DNA from: Octopus vulgaris
Lineage: Eukaryota
DNA length: 64,000 nucleotides
Direction of reading: 5' to 3'
Assembly: GCA_951406725.2 (NCBI GenBank)
Contig: OX597822.1
Span: forward strand, 35,402,001-35,466,000
Shown here: positions 4,635 through 63,470 of the stretch, one piece after another
Layout: each line of letters begins with the position of its first letter
How positions within the stretch are numbered: position 1 is the first letter of the stretch
Program-made: the position numbers and the translations under genes
Notes under the pieces: generated by a model
The model's database searches: none
Told to the model about the DNA's origin: nothing
Seen by the model: only the letters and a program-made list of their open reading frames with translations

Positions 4635-4916
<282 letters not shown>

Positions 4917-5175
4917 AAAACCAGTGGTCTAGCATATTAAAATCTGAAGCTTCAGAAAATTATATTACGTAGATATAAGAGGGATGACCACTACGTGGAC
5001 AACCCTTATGCTAGAAGTCAAAACCCCAATGGTCTTACCACAATGAAAGGAATGTTCTTCAGAAATTTAGCAAACGCCAGAACGTAAGTGAGCAAGAAAA
5101 TGAAAAGAAACAAAAATATAGATTAATCATAGACATGTTTCGCTACCAACAGTTACGCAATTTTACTTACGCAAT
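4917..5175 (-). mobile_element. Penelope-pLTR/retrozyme-like fragment with the 3' half of a hammerhead and a conserved stem motif
   Basis: Minus strand CGAAACATGTC at 5132-5142; ctagcata...tatgctag-accact motif similar to 37933-38024. Confidence 0.5.
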
Positions 5176-5325
5176 ATGTATATATATGTGTGTGTGTACT
5201 TACTCTATCGGTCTATATTGCCGAACCGCTAAGTTAGGGGGACGTAAACACACCACCGTCGGTTGTTAAGTGATGTTGGGGGGAGGGGACAAACACATAC
5301 ACACAAACATATACACACACACACA

Positions 5326-5392
<67 letters not shown>

Positions 5393-6191
5393 GACGGGTA
5401 TTTTTCAGTTTCCGTCTACCAAATCTACTCACAAGGCTTTGGTCGGCTCGAGGCTATAGTAGAAGACACTTGCCCAAGGTGCCACGCAGTGGGAATGAAC
5501 CCGTAAGCAAGCTACATACCACACCGCCACTCAAATGTTCTGGATTGTCTGTAATTGTAGTTTTTGTAGCTGCGGTTGTGTATATCTAATCTTTAAATTT
5601 CATAATTAAATATCACGGTCTTTTGTCAGACCTTGAACAAAGTCTACCTTCTAGTCAACAATAATAAATAACAGGCTTCAGATCAAATGCATTCCAATCG
5701 TGGCCATCTCATCATATTTTAAATATATCATATTCCTTTGTTTCTTGTTTTTTTTTCTTTTCTTTTTTTTTTTTGCTTGTTTCAATCATTTGACAGCGGC
5801 CATGCAGAAAACACCGCGTTGAAGGGGTTTTAGTCGAACAAATCGACCCTAGGATTTATTTCTTAAGCCTAGTACTTATGCTATTGGTCTCTTTTGCCGA
5901 ACTGCTACGTTACGGGGATGTAAAACACACCAACACCGGTTGTGAAGTAGTGTTGAGGGAACAAACACTGACACAAAGACACTCATACATACATAAATAC
6001 ATACATGCATACAAAAATTATAGATATACTATTAAAATTATAATTTAGGGTATCTAAGAGATAACCACGCTGGAAAAAGCAGCCAAACCTAAATTATAAT
6101 TTTAATAATATTATTACCTTCCAAGGTATTTTATTCCCATGCTAGCCACTTGATAAGATCGATAATTAAATTAAGGATCTTATTCTTATTT

Positions 6192-6300
<109 letters not shown>

Positions 6301-12669: not shown

Positions 12670-12674
<5 letters not shown>

Positions 12675-13965
12675 AAATATTAGGGAATAAATCCAAACCT
12701 ACAGGGAAAAATCAGATTTAGGATTAAATCCAATTTTATAGTATAAATATATTAAATTATATTATATTAAATTAGAGATAAAACCACTATTAGTCAAATC
12801 AAACAGTGAAAAACATAAGCCAATACATAAAATTAATTTAATATATATTATTTTAAATATATATCAAAAGTATTAAAAGTTTAATAAAAGATAAAGAGTA
12901 AAACATTACGATCGTTTCATGGCTGTACCAATTCGAATAACAATAATTTAAATTCAATTAATAATTCTAGTTATGGTTACAGTCAATCTTCAGGTTAATT
13001 GAAATATTTAAGAAATAATCAGAAATATTTAAACAATATTTTTAAGATATAAATAATATAATAATTTTACTTATAATAAACTCTATTATCAAACTAGAAA
13101 CATAAAACTTAATTATGATTATATCAAAATCGACTATAATGTTAAATATTAATTTTAATTTATAAGGTAGGAAACCAACCAATAATCTAATATCGGTAAT
13201 AATCTATATCTAATTACATAAATATTTAAAAATGACTATTATATATAAATTATCAATGAAAATATATAAATGTATATAAATATTATAATTAAGATCTAAA
13301 ATAATCTCCATAAATAAATATATATGCACATATAATAAAAACATAATGAATTAATTTTTCATATTTAAAGGTGAAATAGTTAATTTCAAAAATACAAATA
13401 AACAAACTTAAACGAACTTTCGGAAATCTTATGTAAAATACTTATAGAAATAATCAATTTGTAGTAATATAGTATCGAATAAATACTATAAATACTATAA
13501 ATATAATTATCAATGGGAATAACTAGCGACTATCAATTTACAAAGACAATAACTAAGTTATGCTATTAAATTAGATATGGCCTAGACCAATCTTTAGCCG
13601 AAACAGATCTAAGTTTATCAAAGTTTATCTAATTTAATTATAAGAAATTTAAAACTACAATTAATACTATTAAAACATGTATATACAAAAGCCTGACTTT
13701 ATACACCTCGTATACTTGCTATCAAACAACAAATCTATCGCTAAGTAGTATCTTACAAATAAACTTAAATTTAATATCTAATAATATAGAAAATTACGAT
13801 AATTAGATCATTACATAAACAACGATATTTACATAAGGAAAATATTAATACACCAAAGACTTATAAAATATTAAAATTTACAATTTGAAGATCTTAAATA
13901 TCAATAAATACTTATCTTAGCGAGGTTTGCCTAATAGTGGTTTTATCTCTAATTTAATATAATAT
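12670..13965 (-). mobile_element. About 1.26-kb non-coding Penelope-like element in (TA)n with hammerhead and short inverted terminal segment
   Basis: Flanked by (TA)n; 13926-13965 is an inverted copy of about 12762-12798; a homologous second copy lies at 63117-63470. Confidence 0.7.
12901..12999 (-). ncRNA. Type I hammerhead ribozyme motif (stem I damaged)
   Basis: aac CTGAAGA ttgactgta...tacagccat GAAA cgatcg TA; in the 63345 copy TA is followed by gtt, which would pair with aac. Confidence 0.65.
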
Positions 13966-25023: not shown

Positions 25024-25681
25024 TATATAGTAAAGAAAATAAGATGGCTAGCAGCAGGCTGTTTCGCCTCATACCGAAGGAATTAGAAATGGCAGTCAAA
25101 GACCGTTTTTTCCATTTTCTATAAGTGGAGATTCCAAAAAACGAAGGCCCTTACGGCTCACATACACAAAACCGGAGTGGCAAATAGACGAAAGCAATCA
25201 CTTACCGTTAATAGCGAACACGTGTTTCTGGATCACAAACATAGAAAAAGTAGTTTGAATTCCGTCATCGGCGCTATATTCGATAGCTTTACCAAATGCC
25301 ACCAGCCCTCACTTCTGACCCAGCGACATCAGATAGTGGGGGGAAGTGCGCAGATGTTAAAACTAAGTAACGACTGGGAACGTAAATTTTCCCTCCAAAA
25401 TTGTGGCATTTGGTAAAGCTATCGAATATAGCGCCGATGACGGAATTCAAACTACTTTTTCTATGTTTGTGATCCAGAAATACGTGTTCGCTATTAACGG
25501 TAAGTGATTGCTTTCGTCTATTTGCCACTCCGGTTTTGTGTATGTGAGCCGTAAGGGCCTTCGTTTTTGGAATCTCCACTTATAGAAAATGGAAAAAACG
25601 GTCTTTGACTGCCATTTCTAATTCCTTCGGTATGAGGCGAAACAGCCTGCTGCTAGCCATCTTATTTTCTTTACTATATAT
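25024..25681. repeat. Near-perfect inverted repeat, 279-bp arms and 100-bp spacer
   Basis: 25024-25302 versus 25403-25681 with one mismatch seen; ends run into TA. Confidence 0.95.
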
Positions 25682-36151: not shown

Positions 36152-37274
36152 CCTCTTTTCTTTCTTTCTCTCCCCTTTCTCTCTCTCTCCATATACATGT
36201 ATATATGTATGCGTGTTTGTCGGCAACCATTTCCTCTACGGAGTAAACAGGGACATAAAATGAAAGAAAGTAAAGGATTACTCGATGTATGTCACCCCAG
36301 AGATCTCTGAATCACAAACTCATACTTCCCAAACAAGCACTCTCAAAGTTTCATAAGTGCATCCAAGCTCACATTGATAGCACCAAATTGATCCTGGTAT
36401 TACCACATGAAACCGTTTCCATACTTTTCCCTACAAACGCAGCTACCGAATTTCTGTGATTTGGATCATTCCTTCATTATCAGTTAAGTTGGACTATTCT
36501 ATCGTGTGAAGTTAAAATGCTTTGTATATAGTTTAAAGTTCCGTTATAGATAGAATCAACAAAAAAATTACTCCATCCAGTGAGAGATAAATATCATTGA
36601 ATATATATACAATTACAAAAGGGCTACTGATAGTTTCATGCGTTAAGGTACATTAAGTTGGCAGATTTTTATAGTATACCGTGTATCTCCAAGAAATCTT
36701 TCTGACTCAGTTCATAATGGCAGATGTGTTTAAAAACCAGGACGCTGGTCTATGGCACAACATGAGAAAAAAAAACGAGGAGAAAAGAACGCGAAGAAGG
36801 TTGATGTAAAAAAAATGGAACGATAAGAAGGAAAAACAAAATAAAGATGCCAAGATTTTCGTCCTCCTTGACTGTAGAAACCATAATTTTCTTTCTTCTC
36901 GTTCCACTTTTTACATCAACTTTCTATGCGTTTTTTTTCTTCTCGTTTCTTTCTCATGCTTTCTTACATACTTTTACCCTGGTTTTTAAATACATCAAAC
37001 GTTATGAACAGAGCCCGAAAGATTGCGTGGAGATATATGGCCTGTTATATAAATTCGTTATCTAAATTTAATGTATCTTAAAAAACATGAAACTTTTAGT
37101 TGCTTTTTTGTAATTGGTAAGTAGCTTGCTTACGAACCACATGGTTCCGGGTTCAGTCCCACTGGCTGGCACCTTGGGCAAGTGTCTTCTTCTATAGCCT
37201 CGGGTCGACCAAAGCCTTGTGAGTGGATTTGGTAGGCGGAAACTGAAAGAATCCCGTCGTATATATGTTTATGT

Positions 37275-38252
37275 ATAATTAAAATCACAATAAGGGTGAA
37301 AAAAATTGAATATTAATTAATAACATCAATTTAAAACACCAAGTGGCCTAGCGTATAAAGACTGGGATACAGTAAAAATCATTAATACAAGTAATGAGAG
37401 AGAGTCCACATGTGGTCAGTCTAACGCTAGATATAGATGCACGAAGGGAATCCACCACTAAAGAAATGTTCTCAAGAATTAATTCAAGAAATGTTCTCAA
37501 GAATTAAATTGATGTAATTAATTAATATTCAATTTTTTTCACCCTTATTGTGATTTTAATTATAAATTAATATGTTCTCAAACCGGCAGTAAATTACTGG
37601 GGTAGTATTTACATCCGGTTTTTTCAACGCGTGAGAATGAGGATATTTGAACGTAACTGCAGATATAATCGACTGTGCCATTCGCCTTTATTCGGCTTCA
37701 TGTGGATGTTGGCGTTCGACTCAGCAAATTATATTTTTTGATATACTCTACTGAATATCCGAAAATGATTATGTAAGTAAAATTACACAATCTATTAACG
37801 GTGAAACAATTGTATAGAGTTAATCTATTTTTTCGTTATTTTTCATATGTCCTGCTCGCTTACATTCTTGGCGCGTTGAATTAATTCTTGAGAACATTTC
37901 TTTAGTGGTGGATTCCCTTCGTGCATCTATATCTAGCGTTAGAGTGACCACATGTGGACTCTCTCTCATTACTTGTATTAATAATTTTTACTGTATCCCA
38001 GTCTTTATACGCTAGGCCACTTGGTGTTTTAAATTGATGTTTTTAATTAATATTCAATTTTTTTCACCCCTATTGTGATTTTAATTATAAATTAATATGT
38101 TCTCAAACCGGCAGTAAATTACTGGGGTAGTTTTTACATCCGCGTTGAATTAATTCTTGAGAACATTTCTTTAGTGGTGGATTCCCTTCTTGCATCTATA
38201 TCTAGCGTTAGAGTGACCACATGTGGACTCTCTCTCATTACTTGTATTAATA
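37275..38252 (+). mobile_element. Retrozyme/Penelope-pLTR-like tandem element with a 5' inverted copy, inserted in the TA linker of a SINE A
   Basis: About 525-bp monomer (37505-38030) restarting at aaattgatg; inverted copy at 37275-37490; host SINE A at 37115-37270 and 38253-38372. Confidence 0.75.
37745..37820 (+). ncRNA. Type I hammerhead ribozyme motif (G8 to U change)
   Basis: actcta CTGAATA tccg...cggt GAAA caattg TA tagagt. Confidence 0.75.
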
Positions 38253-38422
38253 TGTTTATGTATATATATGAATGTGTGTGTGTATACGTTTGTGTCTGTG
38301 TTTCTCCCACCTCGCTTGACAACTGATGGTGGTGTGTTTACGTCCCTGTAACTTAGCTGTTCGGCAAAAGAAAGTAGTTAAGGTTTACTCGATGTATGTC
38401 GCCCCAGATATATATATATAGG

Positions 38423-45603: not shown

Positions 45604-48120
45604 CACTTTTATTCATAAAATTGGCCAGGAAAGCCGTACACAGATGAGTAGCCGCGGGCTGGCCAAAAACATTAATGAGATGAGAATGATAATGATGAAC
45701 AAAAATGGAAGGAGCACCGGCGCCCGCTGGCCGATTACCACTCAAAATTACTTTTATTCAATTTTACACAAAAAATTCACCAAAATTACAAAATTTTTCT
45801 TAATCTTCCTCTTTCTCATCCGAGCCCCTGCATAAGTTCCCTGCCGCCTGCAGGAAAGCCTGCATCGGCACGTCGGAGTCCGGAAGAAAAGTAAATTCTT
45901 CCTTTCTAAAGGTCACCAAGACCTCAAAAAGTTCTTTTTCTGTTATGACCTCCGCAGCCACCTGCGGAGGCCAACTTGGACAGTCAATGCAGACCGAGTC
46001 GTAACGTTGTCAGTCGAGAAGTCTGTTCAAGAATCCCTCGACAGCCCCTCCTTGTGATAGAAAATGACGAGTTCCACCTCTTCGTCACGGGGAGGGGCCT
46101 CAGCCTGCACAATTTCCACTGTTTCCTCAGTGGCACAATTTCCACTGACGGAATCTTTTCTGCCGGTGGCACACATCCCATCGGCAGATCATTGGGATCT
46201 GACGGCGGCACATCAACATCCGCCGACCGTCTCCCATTTTTTTCTTTTTACTTCTTTTATTTCTCTTCTTTGGGCTTGCGGAGGTCAGGGCCTCTATCGG
46301 CTTATCCGTGAGGTCTGCCTTCTCTCCCGCAACTTGTATGTCTTTTGGTGAGCAACCATTGTTGCTCGCCTTTCTTTTCCTTTTCGGGGAGGCAACCGCC
46401 TCCACTACTTCCTCAGTCTCCCCCTCCAATGGGGTGGGGGCGGAGAGTACCTTTTCTTTTTTTCTCTGCTCCAGGGCCTTACCTCGGCCCTGGGGGCAGT
46501 TCTTTTTGATGTGGCCTGGTTCTAGACACAGGTGACACTTCGGGGGAGCCACCCTCAAGAATCACCGGCCATTACCAAAAAATTCCGGGAATACTAGGCC
46601 TCCGGCCGACTGGGTCCAAAAGATCAAAACTGCTTTTGACCCTGTCCGATCGGTCGCGGCCTCCACCCTGACACCGAGGAGCTTGGTTCCGCTACCGCCC
46701 CGACCTCTACGAATGAACTGTTCTATCAATTCATACCGAATTCTGGGCGGCATCCCACATACCCAAGCCCTCATTATTTTCTTCCCACAATAAGTGGGGA
46801 GGAACAAAATCTCATCCCCTTCTAGGTGTTGACTTTCCGCAATGCAAGCTATCTCAGGGGTGTCAAATAGCAACCACACCCCTGGACACAAAGTAATTTT
46901 TGCTGGCCAACATTTTGCCAGCTCTTTATCAATGATACTCTTGTCGAAGGGGGTGATGGCGTCAGGCGACCTAGAATAGGTCCGTAGTACCACCCTCCTT
47001 CTCTCATGGTTTTCAAGCCACTGCTTGGGTGGGACAATCTCCTACTCCAAAGCGGTGGCCTTATTTTCCTTCATATTAAAATGCCCACATAAAATAAACA
47101 ACAAACAAAAATTCTAAACACAGGAAAAATAGAGAAAACTGTTCAATAAAGGCAGAAGAAATGAAAATAATAGTTCATACCAAAAATAGTTCATACAAGA
47201 AAAAGGAAAAACAACAGTTCACAAGGAGTAAATAAAAATATATAGTTCCAGACAGAAAAAAAATTCAGGCCACAAAGGTATTCCGGCTCTATTCGATCTC
47301 GGCTCCTTTGCAGCTCTCAATTTGATGGTAAAATCCAGTTCTTTGCTTGTAACTAAGCAAAAAAAAATTTAATCTCTTCTTCAAATCCGTAATAATCAAA
47401 ACCTCTAAGTTGGTTTGAAAACAACAAAAATTCTTCTTCAGTTTTTCTCCACTGTAGAAAAACAACAATTTACATCAAATAATTCCGGTTTGCTTCTCGG
47501 GCTGTTCAAACAAGCTCACCGGCAACAAGCCACACACACTTTGCTTGCTAAACAAGCAACAAATTCACCGCCAAGAGTTAGCGAAAATGCACCAGGGCAG
47601 GGTAAAATATACCGTAATAAAAATAAGACAATAATTCTACCCAGCTCAGAAAAACCAAACCCACTCACCCTGACGTCGACCAGATACACGTCTTCAATAA
47701 AAGCGGAAGAAAAATTGTTCAATCTTCGGAGGCAAAGACACTCCCCCAAACAGCAGTTCTCACAATTATTTTAAAATTCTTCAAAATGAACAAATTTTTC
47801 GTAAGCACAATACTCCTCCAAGCAACAACTCTCATAATTAAGTGAGAAAAATATTCACTCAACATAAACCGCTAACTAGGAAGATGAATACACCTCTAAA
47901 CAAAAAATTCTCACAATTAAGCAAGAACCAGAATTCTGAATCCAGTAGGACTTCCTGTCTGTAGAAAAAAAATTCTCAACAAAAATTACCACTGGACCCA
48001 AAAAACCAGAATCCTACCTTACAATGGAGCTTCAAAATCTTTCAATTCGAGACGGCTTCAAAAGCATATCTCACCGCTTCAGTGCCAAACACAACACTGA
48101 CTCGCACATGCGCAATGAGA
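45604..48120 (-). mobile_element. Tx1/L1-like LINE (5' UTR, ORF1, possible start of ORF2) inserted in a SINE-A head with a 9-bp TSD
   Basis: TSD taagcaagc at 45595-45603 and 48121-48129; host SINE A at 45232-45603 and 48121-48152. Confidence 0.8.
45830..47074 (-). pseudogene. Disrupted gag-like ORF1 with a CCHC zinc knuckle
   Basis: ATG at 47074 is in frame, through two stops, with ORFs 46562-46993 and 46127-46558; CHLCLEPGHIKKNC knuckle followed by a basic/acidic tail. Confidence 0.75.
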
Positions 48121-63116: not shown

Positions 63117-63122
<6 letters not shown>

Positions 63123-63470
63123 TAGGGAATAAATCCAAAAATACAGGGGAAAATCAGATTTAGGATTAAATCCAATTTTATAGTATAAATATATTATATT
63201 ATATTATATTAAATTAGAGATAAAACCACTATTAGGCAAATCAAACAATGAAAAACATAAGCCAATACATAAAATTAATTTAATTTATATTATTTTAAAT
63301 ATATATCAAAGGTATTAAAAGTTTAATAAAAGATAAAGAGTAAAAACTACGATCGTTTCATTACTAAACCACGCTAAGATAAGTATTTATATATATTTAA
63401 GATCTTCAAATATTGTATAAGTCTTTGGTGTAATAATATTTTCCTTATGTAAATATCGTTGTTTATGTAA
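63117..63470. mobile_element. Second copy of the 12670-13965 element, rearranged as an inverted junction
   Basis: 63117-63360 matches 12675-12920; 63365-63470 is the reverse complement of about 13812-13928. Confidence 0.85.

Follow-up and report, generated by a model that had tools for sequence, protein, structure and literature searches.

A candidate RNA start region for a Penelope reverse transcriptase downstream of the hammerhead in non-coding elements of Octopus vulgaris

Short elements of the Penelope type in Octopus vulgaris carry, downstream of their hammerhead ribozyme, an RNA motif that we regard, with somewhat more confidence than doubt, as a candidate binding site from which a Penelope reverse transcriptase provided in trans would begin its copying, at two internal points. 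A sequence-only reading of the window (the whole 64,000-nucleotide stretch analysed here) had offered three guesses at its function: a signal recognized by reverse transcriptase, a switch or pseudoknot, and a second ribozyme. The first is the best fit of the three, because insertion ends map into the motif and just beyond it. In the mechanism that we envisage, the Penelope protein of an autonomous element would bind the transcript through a short box (GUGGUY..UCYCU) and the surrounding fold; the endonuclease would nick AT-rich DNA on both strands; one nick would prime at an AU-rich site inside P1, the outer stem, while the second would prime some 90-105 nt 3' of it. Two such priming points would lead to an inverted arrangement with a 'tail' at one end.

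Template choice by Penelope-like proteins and the origin of the 'tail' are known from one element in vitro, in which the binding site was bracketed by truncation only. A fold that brackets insertion ends offers a concrete, mutable candidate for template choice and for the mobilisation of retrozymes in trans, a question on which the motif bears, and it also provides a descriptor for tracing the autonomous partner element. A bolder version, possible yet doubtful in our estimation, makes the motif the template-recognition RNA of a Penelope-like reverse transcriptase, that is, a multi-helix domain, possibly a nested/pseudoknot switch, that would set two start sites and let non-coding retrozymes hijack the enzyme. 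If true, it would be the first structurally defined domain of this kind for such an enzyme. Penelope-like reverse transcriptases form the sister group of telomerase, so that the motif would then be a natural counterpart to the structured telomerase RNA.

The two motif strings first reported were found where they had been placed, on the minus strand at 5016-4921 (element A) and on the plus strand at 37933-38024 (element B; Table 1). The hammerhead cut sites, 5132 and 37814, were also right, and the outer stem lies at a like distance from them, 118 and 119 nt. An upstream GUGG follows the cut by 91 nt in both elements, and the inner GUGG by 141 nt in A and 140 nt in B. The motif is larger than first described, in that pairing reaches upstream of the outer stem. 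Nor are the two copies the full set: another full one lies in the inverted arm of B and a partial one at 38202-38252, and what had been taken for a weaker single copy at 6058-6150 is in fact an inverted piece plus a direct piece of a third family, C. A and B are homologous, with 73% identity over 139 nt of upstream sequence (E 3e-11) and 96 of 131 aligned letters identical across the motif. The pattern GCTAGN{0,1}CCACTKG, derived from the copies, has four matches in the window and none in 100 shuffles.

Table 1. Features of the four families, in window coordinates; box distances in nucleotides
Feature	Position	Strand	Remarks
Element A, 5'-truncated hammerhead-bearing Penelope-type non-coding copy	4916..5178	minus	ends in (TATC)n microsatellite
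A hammerhead, 3' half	5127..5174	minus	CUGANGA half missing
A distal helix II hairpin	5174-5153	minus	GUAAAA loop
A hammerhead GAAA	5141-5138	minus	
A helix III		minus	palindromic ACAUGU; predicted cut after 5132
A P0, 5' strand GUGGU	5037..5041	minus	predicted partner ACCAC 4928-4924
A P0a hairpin	5020..5036	minus	forms with P0 enforced, 3 kcal/mol above minimum-energy fold
A P1, outer stem	4929..5014	minus	5014-5007 with 4936-4929
A helices inside P1		minus	P2 5006-4980; P2b 4978-4960; P3 4956-4943
A box GUGGUY..UCYCU	4980..4991	minus	3' arm of P2
Family C, inverted piece	6030..6095	minus	box 6068-6057; small hairpin; end at +39
Family C, direct piece	6088..6193	plus	P3-like hairpin; AUGCUAG CCACUUG (6139-6152); end near +125
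Family D (tentative)	12672..13000	minus	hammerhead-like CUGAAGA ... GAAA CGAUC GUA; end near +115
Family D box	12787-12774	minus	
Family D, inverted piece	13811..13965	plus	ends 26-30 nt after box
Family D, second copy	63117..63470	minus	box 118 nt after predicted cut; end near +113
Left 14-bp target-site duplication	37264..37277	plus	in microsatellite of split SINE
B inverted arm with second full motif copy	37274..37487	minus	ends 132-136 nt after box
Second full motif copy, in B inverted arm	37430-37340	minus	
Element B, one 522-nt unit	37620..38141	plus	head-to-tail in public contigs
B type I hammerhead	37745..37820	plus	predicted cut after 37814
B hammerhead parts		plus	helix I 37745-50/37815-20; core 37751-57; helix II 45 nt; GAAA 37803-06
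B full motif	37904..38021	plus	
B helices		plus	P0 37904-09/38016-21; P0a 37910-28; P1 37933-39/38009-15; P2 37941-64
B further helices		plus	P2b 37968-85 (weak); P3 37990-38002
B partial tandem copy	38141..38252	plus	stops inside motif, 28-30 nt after box
Right 14-bp target-site duplication	38251..38264	plus	

On the features tested, the carrier of A and B is a short non-coding hammerhead-bearing Penelope-like element of the retrozyme type. Between its 14-bp direct repeats, B has one full unit preceded by an inverted arm and followed by a partial tandem copy, and the direct repeat 37508-37617/38033-38142 is evidence of a head-to-tail tandem. The B unit has matches in 477, 308, 253 and 60 public read contigs from four runs and three organisms (the four are among 24 runs listed). 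A joint that steps back 522 nt was found in two of the four and near-equivalent joints in the other two; B is therefore one copy of a repeated head-to-tail 522-nt unit. One of the four runs, X9, may be RNA and is given no weight as a sign of transcription. No open reading frame of 75 aa lies inside 37620-38141, and one 76-aa frame begins at 38096 and extends into the flank of B; an 84-aa frame over A has no Pfam match. Pfam detected no reverse transcriptase or GIY-YIG domain in the 47 frames searched of 196 listed, nor in a relic at 61.3 kb. The inverted and partial-tandem arrangement, with AT or microsatellite targets, is seen in B, in C and in one copy of D. Helitron/Helentron ends were also weighed and dropped, since the target duplication, the tandem unit and the hammerhead oppose them.

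The sequence-only reading had the cut sites of the two ribozymes right, but the ribozymes themselves call for correction. Of the A ribozyme just the 3' half is left, and in the window copy of B the core is mutated to CUGAAUA (T at 37756, the G8 position), the family core being CUGAAGA: G is found at 37756 in 430 of 578, 4697 of 4697, 594 of 607 and 52 of 52 depth units in the four runs. In B, the core sits upstream of where the local sequence would place it; helix III is the palindrome ACAAUUGU. CUGUUGG/CUAUUAA, tried as a decayed core, was rejected, the true core being found at 37751. In the read contigs, two helix II pairs (37759/37801 and 37767/37792) show variants in both partners, whether on the same or on different molecules, and a variant at 37788 repairs a helix II mismatch. 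Counting against this, core position 37752 is C in about half of the X4 depth, and variants at 37800 and 37819 have no partner among those listed (40 of 65).

It is likely that the motif has a real, conserved RNA fold, on evidence that is suggestive and short of the R-scape standard. When A and B are folded separately, both form P1 (the outer stem), P2 (the inner hairpin) and, on the 3' side, a further small hairpin, P3, which bears out the earlier statement that outer stem and inner hairpin keep pairing; the covariation claimed for them is suggestive, 16 of 17 pairs being kept in P1 and P2 alone (P = 0.08). The upstream addition, P0, joins GUGGU, 91 nt after the cut, to the (A/G)CCAC that follows P1. 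In B it is part of the minimum-energy fold, with a pair probability of 0.75; in A the fold with P0 lies 3 kcal/mol above one with a different, A-specific outer helix. The consensus given by unguided RNAalifold contains both P0 and P1, and the hairpin P0a, between them, shows two double-sided changes. The predicted order is P0-P0a-P1-(P2, P2b, P3), with P0 stacked on P1. Over the motif, A is clearly more stable than its shuffles (z -3.2). The decayed B copy in the window has no such advantage over its own shuffles (z -0.3), which counts against the reading of the motif as a start site for reverse transcriptase.

In all, 35 of the 39 pairs of A are kept in B, despite differences at 25 of the 78 paired letters; against a null mean of 24-26 this gives P of about 1e-4, a value inflated by the alignment of P0a and P2b by eye. 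For the better-anchored P0, P1, P2 and P3, the count is 25 of 27 pairs (P 0.014), and only 2 of 1000 neutral descendants of A refolded P1, P2 and P3. The pair count on the three-row alignment did not exceed that of its shuffles (154/500). Since the whole fold is carried by two families only and the alignment is partly hand-guided, the covariation is suggestive only. Eight family substitutions are listed within 37904-38021 (among 40 of 65 variants), six in loops or linkers and two in stems, and both stem variants (37924 and 37958) give Watson-Crick pairing where the window copy has a mismatch. G-U pairs assign the fold to the hammerhead strand. A letter-free descriptor of P0, P1 and P2, drawn afterwards, finds A and B only in the window, on that strand, and nothing in three shuffled windows. 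The covariance model proposed as a check, built from three rows, recovers its three source copies and the partial B copy and misses C and D. The two full-motif arms and the partial copy of B share mismatches in P0a and P2, which points either to the copying of a template whose fold was already weakened or to later homogenisation of the arms.

Insertion ends were counted from the G of the GUGGU box. Near ends fall at +28 to +30 on the right of B, at +39 in the inverted piece of C and at +26 to +30 in that of D. Read contigs leave the element at 37978 (+25) into (AT)n, at least 4 in X1 and at least 6 in X4; this exit is not among the loose contig ends listed (24 of 173) for X10 and X9. Far ends fall at +132 to +136 in B, about +125 in C, and +113 and +115 in D. 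Two clusters, +25 to +39 and +113 to +136, cover 8 of the 9 ends examined (eight in the window and the read end at 37978), a small number, clustered partly post hoc; the end of A, at +76, is outside both. In B, in C and in one D insertion, near and far ends are on opposite sides of the inverted arrangement, and the distance from end to box is similar in three families. Microhomology with (TA)n alone could also account for ends in AT-rich stretches.

The box itself recurs in families that lack the whole fold. The inverted piece of C carries GUGGUUAUCUCU and overlaps the direct piece by about 20 nt. In D, the box is GUGGUUUUAUCUCU, 118 nt after the D cut, and hammerhead-like halves are present; P0, P1 and the downstream CCAC are missing. 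Neither C nor D is picked up in the window by profiles built on A and B. As D is missed in this way and has neither P0 nor P1, its relation to A-C is tentative. The pattern GTGGWYN{0,3}TCYCT, chosen after the copies had been inspected, matches 12 times in the window, where 0.51 matches would be expected. Every match lies in A, B, C or D, and three of them are the upstream GUGG of B. Since D has the box and the same end spacing without P0 and P1, the signal may be the box rather than the whole fold. About 70 nt upstream of the D CUGAAGA, a GUAAAA-loop hairpin (minus 13075-13055) resembles the helix II tip of A and B; in very AT-rich DNA it may occur by chance.

The closest parallel is PAc, a Poseidon element of Anolis carolinensis. 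According to the available part of the source (PMC11167929), reverse transcription begins at two internal sites that follow the hammerhead, it depends on RNA lying 3' of the first of them, and the ends of genomic copies coincide with these sites. The octopus elements likewise have an RNA region downstream of a pseudo-LTR hammerhead, what may be two points where copies end, and AT-rich targets. The region is protein-coding in PAc, whereas it is non-coding in the octopus window; the PAc start is in an AC-rich stem-loop 85-92 nt after the cut, whereas the first end here comes about 164-170 nt after it; and the PAc tail measures 30-40 nt against about 90-105 nt here. The comparison is one of position. 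The motif probably works like the PAc initiation region.

Among the rival explanations, the switch or pseudoknot is one that we hold to be unlikely, though it is compatible with a start site for reverse transcriptase. The inner GUGGUY would leave its hairpin and pair with the CCAC after the outer stem, as a toggle, for example, between an RNA open to translation or cleavage and one serving as a template. Such a helix, as the sequence-only reading had noticed, can indeed form. It has 8 bp in A, where its -13.0 kcal/mol exceeds the -7.5 of P0; in B it has 6 bp if 37958 carries the family letter; in C it has 7 bp, a C-G pair being replaced by U-A, and no full 5' arm of the inner hairpin is seen beside the C box. 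The upstream GUGGU is, however, the simpler partner: it is the one given to the CCAC by unguided RNAalifold and in the minimum-energy fold of B, which makes a switch unnecessary, and all four boxes are already engaged in the nested fold. When enforced under nested folding, to which the scoring is confined, the alternative helix raises the energy by 14 kcal/mol in A and by 4 in B. About a third of the X1 depth at 37958 keeps the letter that shortens this helix, and D lacks the downstream CCAC. A general scaffold, rather less likely still, would be a domain of a self-paired, possibly circular retrozyme RNA serving stability or insulation of the hammerhead and making no specific contact with a protein. 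The available part of PMC7229834 presents retrozyme circles as highly self-paired and stable, the whole 522-nt unit folds better than its shuffles (z -2.5), and covariation occurs in other parts of the unit too; but the stems CUAGC/GCUAG and GUGG/CCAC are conserved as letters, beyond pairing, and three families have a similar distance from copy end to box.

The motif might also act as DNA, as an endonuclease site, an internal promoter element or a cruciform in the pseudo-LTR, which we judge improbable. The Penelope endonuclease is reported to require the tail sequence in DNA (cited in the part of PMC11167929 available), promoters reside in pseudo-LTRs (PMC6765202, likewise in part), and the opposite strand folds about equally well. 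The G-U pairs and the U-A/U-G changes seen in P0, P0a and helix II make sense on just one strand, however, and P0 is asymmetric, the structural scan finding it on the hammerhead strand alone. Least probable of all, in our opinion, is a second self-cleaving ribozyme of a new class, a guess for whose activity nothing in the analysis speaks. The carrier is already a ribozyme-bearing retroelement, and P1 runs directly into a short helix, in what we take to be a loose echo of the P1/P1.1 geometry of HDV. Against this, there is no Rfam match at the gathering or E-value level, the helix order, compared by eye, presumably does not fit HDV, twister or pistol, and the conserved letters sit in stems while the junctions vary freely.

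The motif had been said to belong to no known RNA family, and Rfam 15 indeed gives no match in the window, the best E values on the two elements being 2.6 and 3.4. Three motif patterns gave 0, 7 and 0 matches in viral contigs, the seven without the outer stem, and three in metagenome contigs, none with the inner hairpin or hammerhead context; two of these three look like the same coding sequence. None of the 10 viral and metagenome loci scored with the covariance model, and these matches do not exceed chance. No such fold is described in the open-access literature covered, Repbase and subscription papers lying outside it. The structure of the motif thus appears undescribed so far, and its mode of action is probably of a known type, that of PAc.

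The carrier, too, has relatives, for which the sources were available in part (further ones for retrozymes and Penelope: PMC4209133, PMC6765202). In Penelope-like elements, partial tandems are accompanied by an inverted copy truncated at its 5' end and by a tail at one end (PMC8557442); the arrangement of B matches this layout, with a tail longer than the 30-40 bp described there. Like metazoan non-LTR retrozymes (PMC7229834; bioRxiv 10.64898/2026.07.22.740005), A and B have a short non-coding tandem unit, low GC and a type I hammerhead, and the unit size of B is within the 51-972 bp reported for Penelope-derived retrozymes. The accessible parts of these two sources describe no conserved domain of metazoan retrozymes besides the hammerhead; the octopus elements differ from them in a 45-nt helix II, a palindromic helix III, an inverted arm and a target duplication. 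With Hydra-clade elements they share (TA)n targets and ends downstream of the hammerhead (PMC8557442) and, with several Hydra elements, the form CUGAAGA-U-[helix II]-U-GAAA with a palindromic helix III; many entries in the hammerhead table of that clade have the U-[helix II]-U style (PMC8557442 supplement). The helices II listed for the clade are short, 3-7 bp, in contrast to the 45 nt of B. A Naiad origin was rejected, as no exact motif words occur in the Naiad/Chlamys/Hydra consensus set of the supplement; one 9-letter exact-word match lies in a Chlamys sequence. In the same supplement, the Hydra-2_Amil consensus stops shortly beyond TAGCCACT, by a few letters. This sequence, about 90 nt downstream of the Hydra-2_Amil cut, agrees over 8 letters with the 3' strand of family C, which may be due to chance.

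Several observations concern the surroundings of the hammerhead. The strand at the tip of helix II (GYGUAAGU-like, with a GUAAGU splice-donor match) can pair either inside helix II or with a downstream CUUAC. In A the strands are minus 5172-5165 with 5160-5155 and about 5090-5083, and in B plus 37770-37778 with 37783-37788 and 37858-37866; all three change together between A and B, and a related family in the reads retains CUUAC (loose end at 37845). A real switch or an intron signal around the hammerhead is possible. In the 522-nt fold, a long-range helix (plus 37624-37631 with 37872-37879) encloses the hammerhead, and contig joints lengthen it. At 37768, unlike sequence is joined in two contigs of X1 and four of X4, and copy A starts at the equivalent position; the helix II hairpin may be a hot spot of 5' truncation.

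Elsewhere in the window, the broken frame at minus 61375-61121 has no Pfam match and presumably resembles a Penelope-type GIY-YIG endonuclease (YIGST...R...IKE...KIN). A young inverted repeat at 25030-25674, with 273-nt arms 99% alike and a 100-nt spacer, has the palindromic GAAACACGTGTT and GTAAGT nearby and is perhaps another Penelope-type insertion. A zinc-knuckle match slightly below the Pfam cut-off (E 6e-4), in a frame at minus 46130-46561, is probably a LINE ORF1 relic, and the window as a whole looks microsatellite-rich, with tRNA-type SINEs.
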